Source: Escherichia phage PO103-1 | Sequence record: NC_079175.1 | Length of the DNA: 53,040 nt | Direction: 5' to 3' (one strand) | Shown here: positions 5,668-52,770 of the stretch, one piece after another | Layout of the letters: each line of letters opens with the position of its first letter | Position numbering within the stretch: position 1 is the stretch's first letter | Translations under genes and position numbers: made by a program | The notes under the pieces: model-generated | What the model saw: only the letters and a program-made list of their open reading frames with translations | What the model was told of the DNA's origin: nothing | The model's database searches: none

Positions 5668-6866
5668 TATCGTCTCGCAAGCATAGAGATTTGGTTAGCA
5701 GAAAGTCTTGGATATACCTCAAAGAATCTTAGAGCCATTACATTCTTATCTGCAAAGAGTTTGTTATCAATGTAGTCTTTCAGGTCAAGTCCGTCTGGAA
5801 AACTGAAAGAATCTTCATTAGAAGTTCGCATAACTACATCAACTTCATCGGTAGTAACTACAACAACCACAGTGGTCGGGATATTGAAGGTTGGTCCAAA
5901 GAACTTCAACCCATTGTTGGAGATGTTAAATCCGCCATACCAAAATTCTGGGGAAGCGGTTGTCTCAACAGTCCATAAACCAACAGACTCCGCATCATTA
6001 ATGTCTTCATGAAAGTCAGCACGAAGCATTGGCACAGGGAGTGCAAACTGGTTTCCATACTTAATGTTGAACTTGTTGTAGTTTGCTTCTGTGATTATTT
6101 CAAAAGCACCAGCGGAGTTGATGAACCACGCATGACCACTGCTGTCCACACCAATTGCAGTGGTTCCATTAACCAATTCGAATATGCCAGTCGAATCGTT
6201 TCGGTGCACATATTGTGAAACACCACCACCAGCATACGCTTCTTCGGTGAAAGTTATCGGTCCTGTGAAAGTACCGCCAGATGTTGGAAGTGTTCCAAGC
6301 TGTTCTGGAGTTACCCTGTGGACAGATGCGCCGGTTCTGGAGATGTGATATGGGATTGTTGTAACTCGTTCGTCGCTGGCGAATCTGTCGTACACATATT
6401 CTTGAAGGTATGTCCCATCAACAATTGTGTCTACAGTATCTTTATGAGGGTTCTGTTCTGCCATATGAGCATTGAACACATTCTTGAGATATTGAACCTT
6501 TTCATTAAACTTAATAAGGTTTGTCTCAAGAACCTCTTGCCAACCACTTCCGGAGGTTGGAGGACTTATATTGCCAGGAATCTCTTCCCGCTTCTGATAA
6601 ATCTTACCATCAACTATTGCAAAAGCGCCAAGCGAATATGTTACGGTATCACACCATTGCAATATCCCACCAACCAACATATCTCGAATCTTAACGTCAG
6701 TGATTTGAGTTAAGAAGTTCTGCCATTGTTCGGGAGGCTTTTCAGCTTCCCAGCCGACATTTTCGTATCGGTCTGGGATATAGGATGGTGCAGTCGTATC
6801 CAAATCGGGGTCAAGTGCTTCGCCATCCTGCGCCCAATATTCTGGGTAATTCAAACGATTTGTCAT
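5667..6866 (-). CDS. Tail fibre / baseplate-attached fibre protein
   Basis: 399 aa; NPHKDT...GGTFTGPITF motif shared with 4276..5667. Confidence 0.5.
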   Translation of the reverse strand: MTNRLNYPEYWAQDGEALDPDLDTTAPSYIPDRYENVGWEAEKPPEQWQNFLTQITDVKIRDMLVGGILQWCDTVTYSLGAFAIVDGKIYQKREEIPGNISPPTSGSGWQEVLETNLIKFNEKVQYLKNVFNAHMAEQNPHKDTVDTIVDGTYLQEYVYDRFASDERVTTIPYHISRTGASVHRVTPEQLGTLPTSGGTFTGPITFTEEAYAGGGVSQYVHRNDSTGIFELVNGTTAIGVDSSGHAWFINSAGAFEIITEANYNKFNIKYGNQFALPVPMLRADFHEDINDAESVGLWTVETTASPEFWYGGFNISNNGLKFFGPTFNIPTTVVVVVTTDEVDVVMRTSNEDSFSFPDGLDLKDYIDNKLFADKNVMALRFFEVYPRLSANQISMLARR

Positions 6867-40762: not shown

Positions 40763-41403
40763 AGGAACTCTCCAATTTTCGATTCAGTGTTTGTGACTTC
40801 TCTTCTCATCTTTTGGCCCAGGAACAGGCCACAGGGTAGCGCAGGAAGGCCGAAAATCGGGCCGCTGCCTACCGTTTGTGTCAATTCTGGATAACTGCAT
40901 TGGCGAAGGGTTACTCCCGTTAGGGTGCGATACGCTAATCACATGAGTGTTGTCGCCTTGCGGCTCAGGCGTGTCACAGAGGCTTTGCAACCCTTCCCAA
41001 TACATTCACCCAATCCACCTGCTTTGGCATAGCTGGTGGCGCGGTTTTGTGCGGATTATGCCACTCTAAGCCCTGTTTGTCCGACTTCCTCAGAGCACCA
41101 GCAGCTTGTGGCACAAACCTATTTTCGAATGACTAACATAAGCATGAGGCATAACCCTCTAATTATTCAGCCCTAACAGCTTGCTTATTTAGTTCCAATT
41201 CATCCCAATACATCGCCTATAACAAGTGAATAGCTTTTCTGCGAAGAAGTATTCCGGCCCTATGGCCTATGTTAAAAGATAAATGTAATATGATGGAAAC
41301 ATTCCATCGAAAAGAACTTTGTAGAACGAATCGAACGTTCTCACACGCCTTGGTACCAGACGGACTACCTAGTTACAAAGTTCTTATCTGATGTTGTTTC
41401 AAT

Positions 41404-41420
41404 TCCAACTAATGTCGAAT
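41404..41420 (-). promoter_or_regulatory. Early-region conserved motif copy
   Basis: attcgACATTAGTTGGA at the edge of the 40763-41408 non-coding block. Confidence 0.3.
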
Positions 41421-41585
41421 GTCTTTCTTGCAAACAGGACAAGTGATAAATCTATATGCGAAATATCCTCGGTCATTCTTACCTGTGTATATCTTTAAGT
41501 CCGAGAATTCATAAGACACAACAGAAGCACATAACCGACATTGGCGTGTGAAGGTTACTGTATCTTTTTCCAGAACTTTAATCAT
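41409..41585 (-). CDS. Small zinc-ribbon protein
   Basis: About 59 aa from ATG with GGAG 6 nt upstream; CRLC...CPVC pairs; the motif copy overlaps its RBS. Confidence 0.45.
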   Translation of the reverse strand: MIKVLEKDTVTFTRQCRLCASVVSYEFSDLKIYTGKNDRGYFAYRFITCPVCKKDIRH

Positions 41586-41590
41586 TTCAT

Positions 41591-41608
41591 CTCCAACTAA
41601 TGTTTCAG
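41591..41608 (-). promoter_or_regulatory. Early-region conserved motif copy
   Basis: ctgaaACATTAGTTGGAG; its GGAG doubles as the RBS of the zinc-ribbon gene. Confidence 0.35.
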
Positions 41609-41731
41609 AATTATTCCAATATTCCAAACAAAAAGAATAATAAGAATAAATTAAATAAATGAAGAAAGTGCTTGACACCCATTTGGCGATAAGTGTATAA
41701 TGCCTTTCTTCCCTAAGTGGTCAGAATCAAA

Positions 41732-41748
41732 TCCCACTAATGTTTCAG
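41732..41748 (-). promoter_or_regulatory. Early-region conserved motif copy
   Basis: ctgaaACATTAGTGGGA in an intergenic stretch. Confidence 0.35.
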
Positions 41749-41812
41749 ACTAAAGCCGAAGGCCAATGCGAGCACAAAACCCGCTTGGCACTTCGAAGAA
41801 ACCCGCCTGGAA

Positions 41813-43779: not shown

Positions 43780-44135
43780 TTCTTCTCCGTACAGCTGGTG
43801 GATAAGACAGGATAGTTTGCTTTGAGGAAATCCCCATCACGGAAAATCTGTAGCACAAGTTTATCTTCATGATTTATAAACAGTGCAGCAAACCTGCTAT
43901 CTTTAATGTTGTAAAATAAAACTGTTGCAGGATTGGGTTCATCACTTGGAACCTCTATCCAAACACCAGCTTCAGGAATTATTGACGCAATCAGAGGTTG
44001 GCTGTCTCCGATGTTATCAACTACAAGAGTATATGCTCCACATTTGAAGTTCTTTGTTGACGCTTTAGACTCAAAGCTGAAGAACGCCAAAACAATTAAT
44101 GCTAAAGTATAAATAATAATGTACTTAAGTTTCAC
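43776..44135 (-). CDS. Secreted/periplasmic small protein
   Basis: N-terminal signal-peptide-like segment (IIIYTLALIVLAFFSFESKA). Confidence 0.45.
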   Translation of the reverse strand: MKLKYIIIYTLALIVLAFFSFESKASTKNFKCGAYTLVVDNIGDSQPLIASIIPEAGVWIEVPSDEPNPATVLFYNIKDSRFAALFINHEDKLVLQIFRDGDFLKANYPVLSTSCTEKK

Positions 44136-44289
44136 AATTAAAACCTCTGAACGATTTTAGATACAGTGTGTAACTTACCTTTATAAAGAATTGCACACCC
44201 AACCATAATAAATTGTGTATTAAGTGTTGAAATTGGCTCGTCAACACCTTCAAGATAAATATCCCACATAAATCCTCCAATAATTAATC

Positions 44290-44315
44290 GAGGCCACTCG
44301 AAGTGGAATGGCCTC
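44290..44315 (-). terminator. Hairpin terminator candidate
   Basis: About 10-bp stem (GAGGCCATTC/GAGTGGCCTC) 6 nt after the stop of 44322..45224, followed by U-rich GAUUAAUUAUU. Confidence 0.45.
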
Positions 44316-44321
44316 TGTTAA

Positions 44322-45224
44322 TTACAGCTTCTTGATAAGCTCTGCGGATTTGTTTGCGGCAGCTTTCATTTCATCGCGCGCGGCTTTAGAGATTGATGCC
44401 TTGTCCACGCGAATATTACAGTTACCAACTGCAATCTTGCCATCTTCTGTTGGCGGAAGCTGAGTTAACTCCAACATTTGCTCCAGCTTTTGCAGAAGAA
44501 TGCGTTGTGCTTCGATTGCATTTTGAATATTTAATGTTTCCATTACTGCTCTTACCTTTCTTGAGAATGTTCCAGTTAATGCCAGCCGTACTTGTAAACC
44601 TTTAATGTTTCCATAGTCTACATTCACTTTATTGGCTGGCGAATGTGGATGTTTGTACACGTTTGTTACAGTTGCCCAATTTCCATTTACCCAAATAACA
44701 TCGCCAACTTCTACATCTTTTCCGAGAACATCTTCTTCATCGGATATTTCCTGCTTCTTGAACTCCTCCACAGGAAGGAATATTGGATTTATTTGGTTTG
44801 GGAACTCAATTGTTGGTGAGTTTGCCATTGGGCCTGGGTTAACAACGTAGACAACCCTACTCTTCACAAAGTCGAAGTACCCTTTCGAGTGATGCAGTCG
44901 AACATCTGAACCATAATCTTCTACGCGAGTAATGTAGAAGAAGTTTACACCATAGCTAAGTGTTTCACCTGCTACAACCATCCCAGCTTTGACTGGAGTA
45001 ACCTTTGGCGCATTTTCATGCTTATCGACAATTTCCACAATCTTGTATGCGTCCAAGTTGAAATATCCTCCATTATATTGCAGTTGTACAATGTTGGCAA
45101 AATGGAGTATCCTTTCTATTAGGTACTCTTTGCAATCGTGCAGGTATATATCACCTTTCGATACCAAATTTACCGGAATTTTGATAGCCTTAGTTCCCAC
45201 GATATTCCTCACGCATTGCTGCAC
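44322..45224 (-). CDS. Hypothetical protein
   Basis: 300-aa ORF followed by a strong hairpin. Confidence 0.45.
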   Translation of the reverse strand: MQQCVRNIVGTKAIKIPVNLVSKGDIYLHDCKEYLIERILHFANIVQLQYNGGYFNLDAYKIVEIVDKHENAPKVTPVKAGMVVAGETLSYGVNFFYITRVEDYGSDVRLHHSKGYFDFVKSRVVYVVNPGPMANSPTIEFPNQINPIFLPVEEFKKQEISDEEDVLGKDVEVGDVIWVNGNWATVTNVYKHPHSPANKVNVDYGNIKGLQVRLALTGTFSRKVRAVMETLNIQNAIEAQRILLQKLEQMLELTQLPPTEDGKIAVGNCNIRVDKASISKAARDEMKAAANKSAELIKKL

Positions 45225-45321
45225 AGTGTTTGCAAACCCAAATGGTTACATAATCGTTTTCGTGTGAAATTTCCCAATTATGTAGCCCTATAAAACATAA
45301 GATTTTCATAGGGCACCTCCA

Positions 45322-45696
45322 TTAGAACGGAATGTCGTCGTCGAAGTCTTTCGGCTCGTTCGGGTTATAATTGCTCTGCTGCTGTTGTTGAGTAGGAGCT
45401 TGCTGTTGCGCAGAAGGTTGCTGGCGTTGCTGTTGCTGTTGAGCGGCAGCTTGAGGTTGAGCTTTGGCTTTAGCTTTCTCTTCACGCTTACGCATCATTT
45501 CATCAACCTGTTCTTGGGTCATGATGGTTAATGCAAGTGAGGTAAACTCATTACCATTTGCTTGCTTATTCCAGCCAGATACCCAATACCAGATTCCGTC
45601 AACGTTAATACGTCCACGAATGTCGGGATGTTTTGGGTCTTTCTTGAAGCCGTTAGGACCGATAATGCCAGTGTTTACATCTGAATATTGTGCCAT
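45322..45696 (-). CDS. Small protein carrying an SSB-like C-terminal tail
   Basis: Gln-rich linker then NEPKDFDDDIPF, nearly identical to the E. coli SSB C-terminal tip as I recall it; N-terminal domain too short for a full OB fold. Confidence 0.55.
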   Translation of the reverse strand: MAQYSDVNTGIIGPNGFKKDPKHPDIRGRINVDGIWYWVSGWNKQANGNEFTSLALTIMTQEQVDEMMRKREEKAKAKAQPQAAAQQQQQRQQPSAQQQAPTQQQQQSNYNPNEPKDFDDDIPF

Positions 45697-45771
45697 GATT
45701 AAGATTCTCTTAAGTTAATTACAGTTTAAGTTTCAGTGACATTGCTAACCACGGAATAGCTTTGTCCCTCA

Positions 45772-45794
45772 TATCCAACTAGTGCTAGATTAAT
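45772..45794 (-). promoter_or_regulatory. Early-region motif copy, extended GATTAATC subfamily
   Basis: gattaatctagcACTAGTTGGAt about 75 nt upstream of 45322..45696. Confidence 0.35.
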
Positions 45795-45825
45795 CAGGAA
45801 CACTCAATGAATGCTCCTTGTTAAT

Positions 45826-46137
45826 TCAACGTTGTTTCTTGGCCCACTCTATTGCAGCCATTATCGTATCGCCGTGGCAGCGAGCTGGGGCACACCAACA
45901 AACTAAATCTTTGCCATCCAATGCTAGCAAATCATCTATTGTTACTTCACCAGATTTAATTTGTTTCCACAAATGCTTGCGATACTCTTCGCACACATAG
46001 TCTCTTTGGCTTTCATTAAACATTTTAAAAGGATTGTGGAATTTCTTGTTTCCAGCAATACCCTTCATATCTCGACCTATATATACTGCGTTGTTGTGAA
46101 CACCTTTAACTTTCGAATAGTTCAGAACTCTTGCCAT
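45826..46137 (-). CDS. DUF4326-like protein
   Basis: VYIGR...NPF and LVCWCAPARCHGD motifs; start MARVLNY at 46137 with GGAG upstream. Confidence 0.5.
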   Translation of the reverse strand: MARVLNYSKVKGVHNNAVYIGRDMKGIAGNKKFHNPFKMFNESQRDYVCEEYRKHLWKQIKSGEVTIDDLLALDGKDLVCWCAPARCHGDTIMAAIEWAKKQR

Positions 46138-46162
46138 CTTTATTCTCCAATTATTATTCACA

Positions 46163-46184
46163 ATCAACTAATGTTAGATTAATC
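46163..46184 (-). promoter_or_regulatory. Early-region motif copy, extended GATTAATC subfamily
   Basis: gattaatctaACATTAGTTGAt about 30 nt upstream of the DUF4326-like gene. Confidence 0.35.
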
Positions 46185-46216
46185 ATGGACACCTACAGGA
46201 GATGCCCATTGTTAAT

Positions 46217-46450
46217 TTAACGAGTCAGTTTGTCAAAGTACCACATATCTTTGGTAATCCACTCACCGCTTGGTGATTTAATGTAGCAACTACCATTGAT
46301 TGTGTATTTGAACTCTGCTTGCTGCAATTCTGCAAAGGTTTTGCATTCATATTTGTATACAAAATATGTAGGCAGTCCAATGACAACCAGAACAGACAGC
46401 AACATTAGTACGAAAGGTACTACAATATCTTTCATAACCCAATTCATCAT
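46217..46450 (-). CDS. Small membrane protein
   Basis: One strongly hydrophobic segment (VVPFVLMLLSVLVVIGL). Confidence 0.4.
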   Translation of the reverse strand: MMNWVMKDIVVPFVLMLLSVLVVIGLPTYFVYKYECKTFAELQQAEFKYTINGSCYIKSPSGEWITKDMWYFDKLTR

Positions 46451-46549
46451 ATCCCCGCTTGTAGAAGGAGTAGGTTTGCAAAACCCAGAATAACTGTGAG
46501 TATAACGACACTGATAGTGAGTGTCAGTATTATATATTTGATACTGTCC

Positions 46550-46837
46550 TCACATTACCTTTGATACAGGAATTGGGTCGATTGTGGTTTCAGGTTTATA
46601 CCAACTTACTTCGCCAGAATCTTTAACAAGCTCCCACAAATTGGAGAATGTACGATAAGATAAATTGCGGTTATCATCATTAACGACAAAACCCAAAGGA
46701 GATTGAATATACGCACCGAGTGTACCGTTGTTGCGAGGAACCCCGTCACCACGACCTGCGACGATTTTGTACTTCTTACCGTAGGTAAAACTGTAATTTG
46801 TTTTACCAACATAACGTAAGATTGAATTCTTGTTCAT
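46550..46837 (-). CDS. Hypothetical protein
   Basis: 95-aa ORF. Confidence 0.4.
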   Translation of the reverse strand: MNKNSILRYVGKTNYSFTYGKKYKIVAGRGDGVPRNNGTLGAYIQSPLGFVVNDDNRNLSYRTFSNLWELVKDSGEVSWYKPETTIDPIPVSKVM

Positions 46838-47121
46838 TTCTTAGCTTTCTCCCATTTGGATAAACCACCTTCAAGATTGAAGATACGATTGCAACCAGAT
46901 TCGTCTTTAATGACAAACTGAGTTCCGGTTAGCTGGATTGGCTCAAGTGAACCAAATATCTTCTTTGGTTTTGACAAGCTGGTGGCAAGAACCACATAAA
47001 CTTTGCTTGGGCAAATGTCGAAAGCAAAGTCACGAGTGTAGACTAAGTCACCAACTTTCAAATATGCTGGTAACAAGCGACCTGTGGCTGGGTCACGTTG
47101 TAAACGAGTACGTTGTTTCAT
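46834..47121 (-). CDS. Hypothetical protein
   Basis: 95-aa ORF. Confidence 0.4.
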   Translation of the reverse strand: MKQRTRLQRDPATGRLLPAYLKVGDLVYTRDFAFDICPSKVYVVLATSLSKPKKIFGSLEPIQLTGTQFVIKDESGCNRIFNLEGGLSKWEKAKK

Positions 47122-47184
47122 AAATGCTCCAAGTTAATTAATAATATTCAGCAACCACTCTCATTACAAAAGTGGTTGAGGAAA

Positions 47185-47415
47185 TTATTTGACTTCTTCC
47201 CAGGACCAGACACTACCTTCCAAGGGGACGCTCTCTCCCGCAGACCAATATGAGTCGCCATAGGAAGTTTTGCGGTCACTGTCTTCTGTGATGTTTATGC
47301 GAGTCTGCACTCCATCTTCGTCTTTAACAGTTACAAGCTCTCCTTCAATAATATCACCAACTTGCGGAGAATATTCAGATGAAGAGGATGATTCTACACA
47401 TTTAAACTTTGTCAT
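47185..47415 (-). CDS. Hypothetical small acidic protein (paralog A)
   Basis: Starts MTKFKCVES; paralogous to the next gene. Confidence 0.4.
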   Translation of the reverse strand: MTKFKCVESSSSSEYSPQVGDIIEGELVTVKDEDGVQTRINITEDSDRKTSYGDSYWSAGESVPLEGSVWSWEEVK

Positions 47416-47639
47416 TGCAATAACCCTTGTTCACAAATATCTGCAAATTCTGCTTCATGGTCACGTTGCCATGTCCAGAATGCACCATTCATAGGCACTA
47501 CAGCGCCTTTACGAAATGCTGGAGAAACATTCTCGGCCGATTTGGTCACTTTAAATTCCAAAGGCGAGATAGCTTCACCCTCAACGATGAAGCCAACTGG
47601 AACATAATCTTTGGTTGAAGCAACACATTTAAATTTCAT
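47412..47639 (-). CDS. Hypothetical small protein (paralog B)
   Basis: Likely start MKFKCVAS at 47639 with AGGTG upstream. Confidence 0.4.
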   Translation of the reverse strand: MKFKCVASTKDYVPVGFIVEGEAISPLEFKVTKSAENVSPAFRKGAVVPMNGAFWTWQRDHEAEFADICEQGLLQ

Positions 47640-47943
47640 GATATAAAACACCTATCTCAGATTTGAGGTTAAATTCACGAAAGAAATCCATTGTTACAAA
47701 ACGGATTTTACCTTCATCATCAACTACGTTACAGGAGATTTCTGAGTGGACCATACGGCCCAACTTCAAAGCAACTTCTGACAGGTTTGCTTCACCAGTG
47801 CCAGAAATCACTTCATAGATTTTATATGGTGTAAAGCCGCTTAAAGAGTTATTACGGCTTGGGACAATCATCATGCCTGTTCTGGTAGCCATAATAACTC
47901 CGGCATTAAAAGTACATGAATGCGCCAACAACAAGCAGCACAA
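47629..47943 (-). CDS. Hypothetical protein
   Basis: 104-aa ORF; true start may be an internal Met. Confidence 0.35.
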   Translation of the reverse strand: MCCLLLAHSCTFNAGVIMATRTGMMIVPSRNNSLSGFTPYKIYEVISGTGEANLSEVALKLGRMVHSEISCNVVDDEGKIRFVTMDFFREFNLKSEIGVLYHEI

Positions 47944-47989
47944 GTGGGAACATCATAATACAGAATACTAGTTTCTTTACAATATCCAT

Positions 47990-48205
47990 TTATTTCACCA
48001 GGAAGTAGAGAACAATAAGGAATCCAACACATGCAATAATGGTTGGCATATAATTATCAATTTTACGATATTGACGTTCGACTGGCTTCTTGCCTTTAAT
48101 GGTGTCCATCAATTCTTGATGATTAATTTGCTGCATGAATGTGTTGAATTGCTGGTCGTTCATTATTTGCCCCTTAGCTTCACATTCTTCCCAACAAGCA
48201 CACAA
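47990..48205 (-). CDS. Hypothetical C-terminally anchored membrane protein
   Basis: 71 aa with C-terminal hydrophobic segment (IIACVGFLIVLYFLV). Confidence 0.35.
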   Translation of the reverse strand: MCACWEECEAKGQIMNDQQFNTFMQQINHQELMDTIKGKKPVERQYRKIDNYMPTIIACVGFLIVLYFLVK

Positions 48206-49602: not shown

Positions 49603-49762
49603 CTGCCAAATAGACGAATTTTGTCACAATTAAACATGCACCATTAATTACAGGTTTACTCCCATACTTAACGTATTTGGCACATTAAGATTGGAGCAAG
49701 CAGGTACGGAAAACCGACCATGTACAGCATAATAAAACAAATTAAATAAAGGGTTTTATCCC

Positions 49763-49779
49763 AATATTGTCACAATATT
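49763..49779. promoter_or_regulatory. Palindromic operator-like site AATATTG-tca-CAATATT
   Basis: Perfect 7-bp inverted repeat with 3-bp spacer, followed by TACATGC. Confidence 0.4.
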
Positions 49780-50010
49780 ACATGCGATGATAAAGCCTTC
49801 GCTTGGCTGGAAGCCAGTATTCATGCGGGTTGCAAGAATATTGGGTTAATGCTGATACAGCTATTACATGCGAAATTGGCACAAATACTGTTACAAAATT
49901 AACATGCCAGATTGGTAGACGATTGTATCTTCGAGGTGATTAGTCCTCTAACAATTCTGCCACATTCCAACATGCCAATTTGTAGCAATATTTACATGCC
50001 ATACTGCGAC

Positions 50011-50027: not shown

Positions 50028-50407
50028 TGTTGCTCAAAATCGGGGCGGGCTACGGGATTAGTTTCGCAGCTTTGCTCCGACTCTTCTCTTCTTTCGAATT
50101 CTGATTGAAAGAAAGAAGCATGTCCAAAAGTTCCAATATTATCAAAGTTATCTCCCGGCTTGTGGGTGGGCCTTTATAATAGGAGATGGAGCAATATTGT
50201 CGCAATTGAACATGCTATAGGTGAAGTACAAGTTTCGAATAGATATTCCTACTCTAAGTCATGGTTGCTGGAACTGTAGGTGGCCTACCTAGGGAGTTCA
50301 ATGATTGCCACATCATTACAACACTGTAACTCAAAGCTGACATGCTGAATGTTTCTAGAATGATTCAACATGACATGCGGAATATTTCTCCGTATTCTTT
50401 TACTTCA

Positions 50408-50427: not shown

Positions 50428-50495
50428 TGGCTACAATATTGAAGTCAGCTCTAAGATTAATTGGAACAAGAAAAGGGAGCCGAAGCTCCCAAGTA

Positions 50496-50732
50496 TCAGA
50501 ACGGTATCTCTGTATCAAAGAATCCAGAATTGTGCAAATATGCGTGCAATAATACATGCGATTCTTGCTTATATTCTGCTAACAATTCTAAGAAGTCTTT
50601 AGTCTCCTCCACTGTAGGACGAGATAAATTGTTCATGTCACAGGTGTGATGAGGATTGAAACAGTTTTCGATTTGATTGATTTGCATGGTATTCATTGTA
50701 GTCTCCAAGTAGTTGTGGTCATCCTTGACCAA
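50496..50732 (-). CDS. Hypothetical small early protein with C-terminal ...DTEIPF tail
   Basis: 78-aa ORF immediately downstream of the RNA polymerase gene. Confidence 0.4.
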   Translation of the reverse strand: MVKDDHNYLETTMNTMQINQIENCFNPHHTCDMNNLSRPTVEETKDFLELLAEYKQESHVLLHAYLHNSGFFDTEIPF

Positions 50733-50738
50733 TTAATA

Positions 50739-52679
50739 TTATTGACAGAAGTAGTAAGCGTGTTCGCTCATCAGAAGCTCTTCGGTTACGATGTTCTCAT
50801 GATACATCTGAATGCCACCAAGTTGCTTAGACAGATTCTCGAATTGATTGTTGGTTACAAAGATTTCAACATATGCTGCACGAATAACTTCCATCATACG
50901 TGGAGCATCTGCCAAACAGCAACGGAAACAATCATGGATTGAAGTGAAGCCACGAAGACCAGCTTCTTTAGCTTTAACTGCAACAGTACGAGCAACAAGT
51001 GCATCAATACCTTGAATGTAGTTAACAACGAAAGTACGCTTGAATTCTTCTTTAGTTGGATTGGATTCACGAATGGTCCAAGGCTTATTCTCCTGAATCT
51101 GACCAAAGATAACACGAGTTTGGCTGTCAACACGAATGCTGAATGCCTCACAGATTTCACGAGATGGGAAGCAAGGCTTCATTACAACCTGACCATCAGT
51201 GTGACGGTATGTGATGTACTCTTTACCAAGTTCAACACAACGGTTGTATGCAGCATCAGCAGCTTTCTCAATGAACATGTTAATCTTAGCACCCAATGCG
51301 TTATGGATTGCTTCCACACACAGTTCAGCAAATGCCTCAGCTTTCTCCATAGGAATCTGGAGAGCTTCTGTCATGTAGCTAATGAAGTCAGATGAACCAG
51401 TTAATGCAGCTTTACCACCACCGTATTGAATGGCCATGTAAGGAGTTTTGATAAACTTACGACCAGCTTTCGGATTCAAGAATTCATCCATGATTTCAGC
51501 AGATGGTTTCATTGAAGAACGGTCGAGTAACTTCAACAGCTCACGAAGACTCAACTGGTATGGGTCAGATGCTTTAGTCTCAGAATCAACCAGACCTGTT
51601 GCACGAGCCATTTCCATGTTACCAGCAATGAATGCCAGATATTGAGTACCAGAACATTTAGCATCTAATCCAAAGCCTACACGAGAATCGCATTCACCTG
51701 TAGTCTCAAACTTGAACCAATCCAGAGCCAGACGAACATAAGTGAATGGCTTAGAAGGACGTTCAGCTTTAGGCATGTTCATCATGCGAGCAAGTGAACC
51801 AGCTGGATTCTGAGCAACATAAGTTAAACGCTTAGCACTGCACCATTCACCACCAGAAATATCTTCCAGCTCTGCCATGAACATGTTGTATGCAATGGTA
51901 GTAGAACCATCTTCGTTAAACTTCTTAACGATGTTCTCAACATTGTGAGAATACAAGCAACGAGCAAAGTCAGAGGATTGTGGGTTAGGACCAGCACATG
52001 CTACATGATACAGGCGACCACGGTTATCAGCAAAGTAGTCAGAATACAGTGTGTCCTGATTCATCATTGCTACAGCATTGTTCCAAACATGGAGTTCAGT
52101 CTGGATTGCTTCTGGCATCTGCAAGCCACCGTAGGTACGTTGTTCAAGCATGGACTGGATGATGCGAACCATCTCAGTCTCCACATGGTACTCAGTATCT
52201 TGCAGGAATTCGATTGCAGCTTTCAGAGTCTTGGATGGCTTAACTTTGCCACCTTTAACGAAAGGCTTGCGACGAGATTCAGATGTAACACGCTCAGTGA
52301 ATGGCACTGCGGTGTCTTTGGTTGTAACCAGTTCAACCCATGTGTCAGTCTGTTGGAATGACTTGTCTTCGTTCATGGTTATGAAGCCAAAGTGCTTAGC
52401 CAGACCAATGAGGTTGATAGCTGGGTCAACATAGTGCATTGCTTTCAAATCGTTGTTGTAGCGGTTGGCATCAGCAATAGAAGCAGAAGCCAGCTCAACC
52501 ATCGCAATGGCAGGAACAACGTCGTCACGTGTGAAAGACGTCATCATCTTGAATATGGCTAAGGCAGCAATAGCACAAGTCTGAGGCTGCATATAGTTCT
52601 GCTTCTCTTTGGCACGGTATACCAGAGCAGTGATAGCAGGAACAACAGATTTGATAGTTTGAGTGGTGATAGTAGTCAT
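50739..52679 (-). CDS. Single-subunit DNA-dependent RNA polymerase (T7-like, compact)
   Basis: 646 aa; GLDAKCSGTQYLAFIAG, RKFIKTPYMAIQYGGG and SIHDCF parallel T7 RNAP DGSCSGIQHFSAML, RSVTKRSVMTLAYGS and HDSFGT; GGAG 8 nt upstream of ATG. Confidence 0.85.
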   Translation of the reverse strand: MTTITTQTIKSVVPAITALVYRAKEKQNYMQPQTCAIAALAIFKMMTSFTRDDVVPAIAMVELASASIADANRYNNDLKAMHYVDPAINLIGLAKHFGFITMNEDKSFQQTDTWVELVTTKDTAVPFTERVTSESRRKPFVKGGKVKPSKTLKAAIEFLQDTEYHVETEMVRIIQSMLEQRTYGGLQMPEAIQTELHVWNNAVAMMNQDTLYSDYFADNRGRLYHVACAGPNPQSSDFARCLYSHNVENIVKKFNEDGSTTIAYNMFMAELEDISGGEWCSAKRLTYVAQNPAGSLARMMNMPKAERPSKPFTYVRLALDWFKFETTGECDSRVGFGLDAKCSGTQYLAFIAGNMEMARATGLVDSETKASDPYQLSLRELLKLLDRSSMKPSAEIMDEFLNPKAGRKFIKTPYMAIQYGGGKAALTGSSDFISYMTEALQIPMEKAEAFAELCVEAIHNALGAKINMFIEKAADAAYNRCVELGKEYITYRHTDGQVVMKPCFPSREICEAFSIRVDSQTRVIFGQIQENKPWTIRESNPTKEEFKRTFVVNYIQGIDALVARTVAVKAKEAGLRGFTSIHDCFRCCLADAPRMMEVIRAAYVEIFVTNNQFENLSKQLGGIQMYHENIVTEELLMSEHAYYFCQ

Positions 52680-52749
52680 TTGTAAGTCTCCAAGATTGTG
52701 TATGATTTAACTGAAACGGATTATAATAGCGTAGCCATTACACAATTCA

Positions 52750-52770
52750 CTTCCAACTAATATCACAAAC
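52750..52770 (-). promoter_or_regulatory. Early-region conserved motif copy upstream of the RNA polymerase gene
   Basis: gtgatATTAGTTGGAAG about 75 nt upstream of the RNAP ATG; a TATAAT hexamer lies about 30 nt further downstream. Confidence 0.35.

Follow-up and report, generated by a model that had tools for sequence, protein, structure and literature searches.

A probable hairpin-plus-promoter junction, present in two copies around a swappable gene beside the SSB gene of a Chaseviridae coliphage

The DNA analysed here (the window) is a stretch of 53,040 nt, which represents the nearly complete genome of a Chaseviridae (Carltongylesvirus) coliphage. A megablast search with positions 44000-48000 returned 44 phage records at 85-92% identity; without exception, these were ST32/phiEcoM-GJ1-like coliphages and Yersinia phages, and they are classified in Chaseviridae, Cleopatravirinae, Carltongylesvirus. 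The minus strand carries all genes, so that upstream corresponds to higher coordinates throughout. The following genes are relevant to the locus.

44322-45224, minus strand: last gene of the SSB unit, 300 aa, phrog_20048 (ORF and PHROG).
45322-45696, minus strand: SSB-like gene, 124 aa, C-terminal DDDIPF, first in the unit behind promoter A (PHROG single-strand DNA binding protein, E 3.4e-42).
45826-46137, minus strand: DUF4326 gene, 103 aa, the cargo between the two copies described below (Pfam PF14216, E 6.8e-22).
46217-46450, minus strand: predicted membrane-protein gene, 77 aa, whose 3' end overlaps copy B (ORF).
50739-52679, minus strand: single-subunit RNA polymerase (RNAP) gene, 646 aa, T7-like (Pfam PF00940, E 3.1e-18).

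The records of the relatives annotate the ortholog of the 45322-45696 gene as SSB, and the RNAP gene is likewise annotated there as a single-subunit polymerase.

A preliminary description of this DNA had proposed that the regions upstream of the SSB-like gene and the DUF4326 gene share an element that is longer than their common core motif. MAFFT and local alignment identified one block common to both regions, running on the minus strand from 45831 to 45776 and from 46222 to 46165.

45776-45831, minus strand: copy A, before the SSB gene (alignment to copy B).
46165-46222, minus strand: copy B, before the DUF4326 gene, which takes in the final codon and the stop codon of the preceding gene, then a hairpin, then the promoter core's 5' portion.

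In the local alignment the two copies were identical in 46 of 58 columns, with two 1-nt gaps. They form direct repeats spaced 389 bp apart, with the DUF4326 gene as the single gene between them. The pairwise alignment showed that the similarity is not confined to the core motif. When the 16-nt core was left out and the 50 nt upstream of cores A and B were aligned, the score was 42, which none of 5000 shuffles reached; for the 54 remaining pairings of the 11 core-motif sites, the mean score was 12.7 and the maximum 20. Both sequence motifs quoted in the preliminary description were found at both sites: GATTAATC, at 45788-45795 and 46177-46184, and TTGTTAATT(C/T)AACG, on the plus strand. GATTAATC is rare in the window (4 occurrences vs 0.98 expected), and the 21-mer TGATTAATCTARCAYTAGTTG was found at these two sites only (0.02 expected). 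The orthologous block of copy A was 84-97% identical across 44 phage records.

The core motif, ACATTAGTTGGATGTG, occurs in 11 copies at up to three mismatches in the window, on the coding strand only, vs 0.84 expected. Copies A and B each run into one of these cores.

45770-45785, minus strand: core A of a putative phage-RNAP promoter, GCACTAGTTGGATATG, orthologous to GJ1 'putative phage promoter 3'.
46159-46174, minus strand: core B of a putative phage-RNAP promoter, ACATTAGTTGATTGTG, located 21 nt ahead of the DUF4326 ATG (motif search).

Putative phage promoters of phiEcoM-GJ1 were reportedly described by Jamalludeen et al. in 2008. Our list of them was taken from the features of the GenBank record EF460875, in which the same 20-mers are labelled 'putative phage promoter 1-9'. 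Promoter 3, before the SSB gene of GJ1, is CAACATTAGTTGGATGTGAG, and the remaining cores of the window match GJ1 promoters 1, 2, 4-5 and 7-9. The GJ1 annotation covers the 20-nt core alone and leaves out the hairpin; GJ1 has a single cassette at the locus because it has no DUF4326 gene. In GJ1, PM1, Faunus and Y2, orthologous sites carry the motif too, again on the coding strand. A σ70 promoter within the block was also considered and rejected: the scan returned 26 matches vs 23.6 expected, and those touching the blocks were weak and not common to both copies. On the basis of the GJ1 annotation, the distribution of the motif and the lack of a σ70 promoter, we took the core to be a putative promoter of the phage's own single-subunit RNAP, a prediction made from sequence. 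According to the ICTV profile, Chaseviridae promoters have not yet been identified, so that promoter activity has the status of a prediction here.

Upstream of the core, the block has a regular plan on the coding strand: a stop codon is followed by ATTAA-CA, a 10-bp stem with a loop of 3-6 nt, and GA-TTAAT, and in A and B the promoter core comes next. The predicted RNA is an imperfect hairpin of about 19 bp, with an AT-rich lower stem (ATTAA/TTAAT), a 2x2 internal loop (CA/GA) and a 10-bp upper stem. The lower part of the stem has 5 (+4) or 8 bp, and no more than 5 (+4) bp in A and B. We found three such hairpins in the window.

44280-44325, minus strand: third hairpin, GUAAUUAA-CA-GAGGCCAUUC-cacuuc-GAGUGGCCUC-GA-UUAAUUAU (covariance model R1, 59.5 bits; fold -24.0 kcal/mol, z -6.2).
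45786-45828, minus strand: hairpin A, AUUAA-CA-AGGAGCAUUC-auu-GAGUGUUCCU-GA-UUAAU (R1, 62.1 bits, E 2e-9; fold -18.4 kcal/mol, z -4.9).
46175-46219, minus strand: hairpin B, AUUAA-CA-AUGGGCAUCU-ccugu-AGGUGUCCAU-GA-UUAAU (R1, 57.7 bits, E 1.6e-8; fold -18.6 kcal/mol, z -5.7).

The TGA stop codon of the DUF4326 gene sits in the 5' flank of hairpin A, and the TAA stop codon of the 46217-46450 gene sits in that of hairpin B. The third hairpin directly follows the 300-aa gene, the last of the SSB unit; behind it come a Shine-Dalgarno sequence and an ATG, without a promoter core. Conversely, nine of the 11 promoter cores have no hairpin.

The pattern TTAACA-N14-36-GATTAA occurred three times in the window (0.34 expected), and a strict structure scan of the 53 kb found three hits on the coding strand and none on the opposite strand. 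In the relatives, the same scan found 2-3 per genome, on the coding strand throughout. Covariance model R1 matched the window at exactly three places, scoring 57-62 bits; on the opposite strand the score was about 19 bits. In the relatives, all copies that R1 found occupied one of three places: ahead of the SSB promoter, behind the SSB operon, or ahead of the cargo gene in genomes that have one. With just 2-3 copies per genome, the hairpins do not constitute a genome-wide system. A search of 44000-46600 against Rfam at E<=10 returned nothing beyond a chance-level match to NsiR4, and a scan of IMG/VR with the SSB protein for distant or metagenomic copies gave 7 loci, nearly all of them already-known isolates. 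Other features considered for the block and its surroundings were rejected. A small ORF (AAGGAG, then TTG) is present in copy A and absent from copy B; a structured SSB leader that could act as an autoregulatory operator had a fold z of -0.09, which was not significant; and a replication origin was not indicated, as there is no skew inflection at the locus.

The comparison of orthologs suggested that the structure is conserved as RNA. We aligned 13 distinct versions of the hairpin from Carltongylesvirus, Suwonvirus PM1, Faunusvirus Faunus and Aeromonas phage phiA050. Double-sided changes were found in 10 of 14 pairs, and the covariation score was 0.566, vs 0.05-0.10 for slid partners. All cells (100%) were paired in the 13 versions, although this figure and the invariant internal loop are partly built in, since the sequences were selected by a scan that demanded pairing and CA/GA. 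The two arms of the lower stem change together (AATTAA/TTAATT, AGTTAA/TTAACT, GATTAT/ATAATC and, in SSEM1, ATGAATA/TATTCAT), and GATTAATC itself is replaced by GATTAATT in GJ1, SA91KD and PM1, by GATTAACT in Faunus and by GAATAATC in type C. G·U pairs are kept at two positions, indicating a structure specific to the sense strand, which scored about 60 bits with R1 against about 19 bits for the antisense strand. Hairpins with compensatory changes occupy the same positions in Carltongylesvirus, Suwonvirus, Faunusvirus, Loessnervirus and one Aeromonas phage; Y2 has a variant hairpin at the same place, and no ortholog lacking a hairpin at these positions was found. The kept pairing, the covariation and the G·U pairs together argue for a sense-strand RNA structure and against a conserved DNA palindrome.

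The gene between the two copies differs among the relatives, and the copies themselves occur in different orders and types, as follows.

Slot empty, hairpin A and promoter: GJ1, SA91KD, EcoM1, PYps3T, Bp10.
Slot empty, hairpin B fused to the SSB leader: BSBP01, 2KOFFS.
Order B, DUF4326, A: the window, JL1, Bp7.
Order A, 160-aa gene, C: ST32 (gp18) and its counterpart in Pel53.
Order A, 173-aa gene, C: flopper (gp11) and its counterpart in Ecp_YSF.

The cargo genes of 160 aa and 173 aa are mutually unrelated. The tails of the upstream genes are of three kinds, which are freely combined with hairpin types A and B; the tail of the 77-aa gene, for example, was also found before type B in BSBP01 and before type A in Bp10. 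When one 389-bp repeat unit was removed in silico, the window became collinear with BSBP01 (711 of 784 positions identical, longest gap 3) and with Bp10 (690 of 800 identical). The hairpin that is retained is B in BSBP01 and A in Bp10, which places the crossovers in the two best-conserved sub-blocks, TGATTAATCTAACATTAGTTG and CGTTAAATTAACAA. In related phages, the gene between the cassette copies has probably been removed or replaced through homologous recombination inside these copies.

Taken together, the feature is real and looks functional, and a hairpin-plus-promoter junction, with one copy on either side of a swappable gene, describes it better than a shared operator does. We consider it probable that each block consists of an RNA hairpin that ends the upstream message and a phage promoter, and that the two blocks are paralogous cassettes around the exchangeable gene. 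The hairpin, which starts from the stop codon, would most likely mark the 3' end of the upstream message. Directly after it, the putative phage-RNAP promoter of about 20 nt would start transcription of the DUF4326 gene or the SSB operon. Copies A and B would be alike because they are paralogous cassettes.

In the preliminary description, the shared stretch was ascribed to palindromic sites at which an additional factor would co-regulate the two genes. The part of this proposal that holds is the longer cis-element common to both genes; the evidence does not bear out palindromic sites for an extra DNA-binding co-regulator. As double-stranded DNA operators for a further, phage-encoded transcription factor, the palindromes GATTAATC and GTTAAnTTAAC would account for the presence of both motifs at both sites and for the rarity of GATTAATC, and their location, beside or across the upstream edge of the promoter, would suit an operator. 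However, the two motifs are mutually complementary and pair as the lower stem of a single coding-strand hairpin; the ortholog sequences that replace GATTAATC are not palindromic, whereas the complementarity between the motifs is kept. The upper stem between the motifs covaries as well, and the structure is specific to one strand through its G·U pairs (about 60 bits vs about 19 bits on the other strand). Because the third hairpin has no promoter core behind it, the hairpin is to be assigned to the preceding transcription unit, whose end it forms, rather than regarded as an operator for the gene that follows. Nor is the cassette confined to these two genes: in ST32, flopper, Ecp_YSF and Pel53, the genes behind the type-A copy are unrelated ones. 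We therefore regard an operator pair for the SSB and DUF4326 genes as quite improbable. An additional factor may still exist, more likely one that acts at the RNA level, such as host RNase III.

A hairpin formed by the DNA itself, either as a cruciform or single-strand hairpin that aids promoter recognition in the style of the N4 virion RNAP or as a replication or priming signal, is very improbable. The RNAP of the phage is small (646 aa) and T7-like, two of the three hairpins lie immediately before promoter cores, and the hairpins cluster around the SSB gene; yet most cores lack a hairpin and one hairpin lacks a promoter, in DNA the conserved G·U pairs would become an asymmetric G·T/A·C, and there is no GC-skew inflection. 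We give almost no credence to the extended similarity being a functionless trace of a recent local duplication. The direct repeats flanking one gene speak for it, but the covariation and the conservation of the hairpin with compensatory changes across genera contradict it, and between the window and PM1, block A is 84% identical whereas the adjoining DUF4326 gene is only 74% identical.

If the hairpin indeed closes the upstream message, it could do so by stopping transcription. It may be a terminator or attenuator of host or phage RNAP, in which case the block would be a terminator-promoter junction that insulates transcription units. The hairpins lie directly after stop codons; the SA91KD record annotates the ortholog of hairpin A as a rho-independent terminator (TransTermHP/WebGeSTer); the third copy passed a simple terminator scan at 44290-44315, with 5 T in 8; and the promoter-early stem-loops (PeSLs) of T4-type phages are terminators. 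Nevertheless, hairpins A and B are followed by GAUUAAUCUA, which contains no U-run, and they were absent from the terminator scan; moreover, the bases that would form the U-tract are locked in the covarying lower stem. Canonical U-run terminators are present elsewhere in the genome (for example, at 50475-50490), which indicates that the hairpin family is of a different type. We therefore hold termination to be a possible but distinctly less likely reading. Termination and processing are not mutually exclusive and could both take place; for the hairpin before the promoter, partial termination or pausing would be the alternative to processing. It is also conceivable, though unlikely, that the CA/GA hairpin is a dedicated cis-RNA signal bracketing the SSB operon and the neighbouring accessory slot alone, which would be read by a phage factor or the phage RNAP and belongs to a stop or processing class without a U-tract. 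If that were true, it would provide a portable 'end-and-restart' cassette for accessory-gene swaps in myoviruses with a single-subunit RNAP, and an RNAP-independent counterpart of the T4 PeSLs.

For the hairpin we favour a processing or stabilising site for RNase III, a reading to which we assign roughly an even chance, on the basis of its shape, its T7-like sequence and its having the same layout relative to the promoter as in T7. Host RNase III would cut on the 3' side of the internal loop, at CCU↓GAUUAAU (the arrow marks the cut), as at T7 sites; the upstream mRNA would then end in a protective 3' hairpin, and RNA from read-through would be trimmed. In shape, about two helical turns with an internal loop, the hairpin matches E. 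coli RNase III substrates. Internal loops limit RNase III to a single cut, in one of the two strands, so that a 3' hairpin with a protective role is left (PMC1540722). We infer RNase III cleavage, like promoter activity and the direction of gene gain or loss, from comparisons of this kind.

The comparison with T7 used RNase III cleavage coordinates that we presume to be correct, checked against the sequence pattern alone, as the T7 records retrieved do not annotate RNase III sites; by this check, 6 of 10 sites show the expected CCUU(U/C)AU↓G or CCUGAAU↓A pattern. A second covariance model, R2, was built from seven T7 sites, including R1.3, and R3.8, R6.5 and R13 were left out because they looked wrong. 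T7 sites have the form CUCAAGG-stem-CCUUUAU↓GAU and the hairpins of the window the form ACAAGG-stem-CCU↓GAU, and an apical CAUUC…GAGUG is common to the T7 sites and some of the window hairpins. Both are intergenic and irregular, span about two helical turns, and contain an internal loop and an upper stem of 9-11 bp; both phages have an enterobacterial host. When hairpin model R1 was run against the whole T7 genome, four of the five best matches lay at or beside the T7 sites R1, R1.1, R18.5 and R0.5 (E 3-10). With R2, 44274-44332 ranked second in the window (E 0.38), and hairpins A and B did not reach E<=10; R2 also matched hairpins of the R1 family in GJ1 and Faunus, and the matches between the two models are individually weak (E 0.4-10). 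In the cassettes of the window, the presumed cut would lie about 20 nt before the presumed +1, a layout like that of T7 R4.7/φ4.7 and R1.1/φ1.1B; taking the T7 cut coordinates as we presume them, the distance from cut to +1 is 23 nt for R4.7/φ4.7 and 36 nt for R1.1/φ1.1B. The likeness is incomplete: the internal loop of the window hairpins is a symmetric 2x2 CA/GA loop without the 3'-side UUAU of T7, whose loop is asymmetric, and their short, AT-only lower stem (ATTAA/TTAAT) is unlike that of the T7 sites.

Part of this locus is already present in GenBank records, namely the promoter core and a 'terminator' label. In the literature searched, we found no description of the hairpin family or its covariation, of a likeness to T7 RNase III sites, or of cassette-mediated gene exchange in Chaseviridae, and the ST32, MLP1, PYps and 'Tiny' papers contained nothing on the hairpin or on promoter signals. 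The finding brings no new principle. Chaseviridae are myoviruses with a T7-like RNA polymerase, and in them this locus presents, in a small space, two signals that can be put to the test: a putative promoter, and a conserved RNA hairpin resembling a T7 RNase III site. Compared across related phages, it is also a clear natural example in which regulatory cassettes serve as recombination points for the gain, loss or exchange of small accessory genes (DUF4326 and two unrelated ones) beside the SSB gene. Its uses would be modest: better annotation of phages in coliphage therapy and biocontrol work, and a candidate orthogonal pair of promoter and processing site.

PeSLs have been described in T4-type phages (Arbiol et al., 2010, PMC2839356; Comeau et al., 2014, PMC4122927). 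Like the cassette described here, they are composites of a stem-loop and a promoter that start from an upstream stop codon, and they flank small accessory genes in a variable region, with the breakpoints of indels and replacements inside the cassettes. The promoters differ, that of a PeSL being an early promoter of the σ70 type and that of the present cassette a phage-RNAP-type promoter without a σ70 consensus in the block. The stem-loops also differ, since that of a PeSL is a G/C-tract terminator whereas the hairpin here resembles an RNase III site, and there are about 50 PeSLs per genome vs 2-3 cassette hairpins. Recombination at PeSLs also yields mini-circles. The cassette thus behaves as in the PeSL shuffling of T4-type phages; it is not a member of that family, because its promoter is not of the σ70 type, its stem-loop is of another kind and its copies are so few.

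Two ordinary terminator-like hairpins were found shortly ahead of copies of the 16-nt promoter core elsewhere in the window:

50475-50490, minus strand: terminator-like hairpin, GGGAGCTTCGGCTCCC followed by TTTTCTT
12185-12205, minus strand: terminator-like hairpin, GATTAATC in the loop and a T-rich tail

The former lies about 55 nt ahead of the core at 50406, and the latter immediately ahead of the core at 12160. Thus, terminator-then-promoter junctions appear to be a general pattern in this genome. Another core copy is located directly upstream of the RNA polymerase gene (50739-52679):

52748-52763, minus strand: promoter core copy, ATATTAGTTGGAAGTG

Its counterpart in phiEcoM-GJ1 (GJ1), at 571, is absent from the nine annotated GJ1 promoters. 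This putative promoter might let the polymerase boost its own gene.

Two further features are the leader downstream of core A and another hairpin:

45697-45769, minus strand: SSB leader, from promoter core A to the SSB start codon
47135-47195, minus strand: intergenic hairpin, flanked by genes 47185-47415 and 46834-47121

The SSB leader was nearly invariant genus-wide (GGGACAAAGCTATTCCGTGGTTAGCAATGTCAC…) and its predicted fold was not significant (z −0.09). The intergenic hairpin was the top match in the window (20.6 bits, E 0.015) of the covariance model made from seven T7 RNase III sites. The same model also matched its GJ1 ortholog (6131-6191; E 0.027), and in phage Faunus a similar match was found directly after the SSB gene (E 0.009). 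As judged by this model, the hairpin may be a second processing site, closer to the T7 type.

PM1 and SSEM1 are the Pectobacterium and Pantoea relatives. Both carry a diverged core (GATTAGTTG…) ahead of the DUF4326 gene (PM1, L010 1150-1200; SSEM1, L022 1490-1535); the CA/GA hairpin was absent at this core in both loci, and hairpin A was still present after the DUF4326 gene. This distribution suggests that the order DUF4326, hairpin A, SSB may be the older arrangement. In PP952070 ('Staphylococcus phage Pel53'), the SSB region was ~89-92% identical to that of these E. coli chaseviruses, with the same cassettes. The record gives Staphylococcus hyicus as the host, a label that looks doubtful.

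Three 33-nt repeats, spaced by 430 and 344 bp, lie in the region poor in ORFs that separates the polymerase gene from the early genes:

49756-49788: 33-nt repeat with a AATATTGTCACAATATT-type palindrome
50186-50218: 33-nt repeat with a AATATTGTCACAATATT-type palindrome
50530-50562: 33-nt repeat with a AATATTGTCACAATATT-type palindrome

In another ORF-sparse stretch (about 41006-41812, minus strand), three promoter cores (41728, 41588 and 41400) fall inside 330 bp. The stretch could be a non-coding transcript region; alternatively, its three cores recall the tandem promoters of the T7 primary origin.
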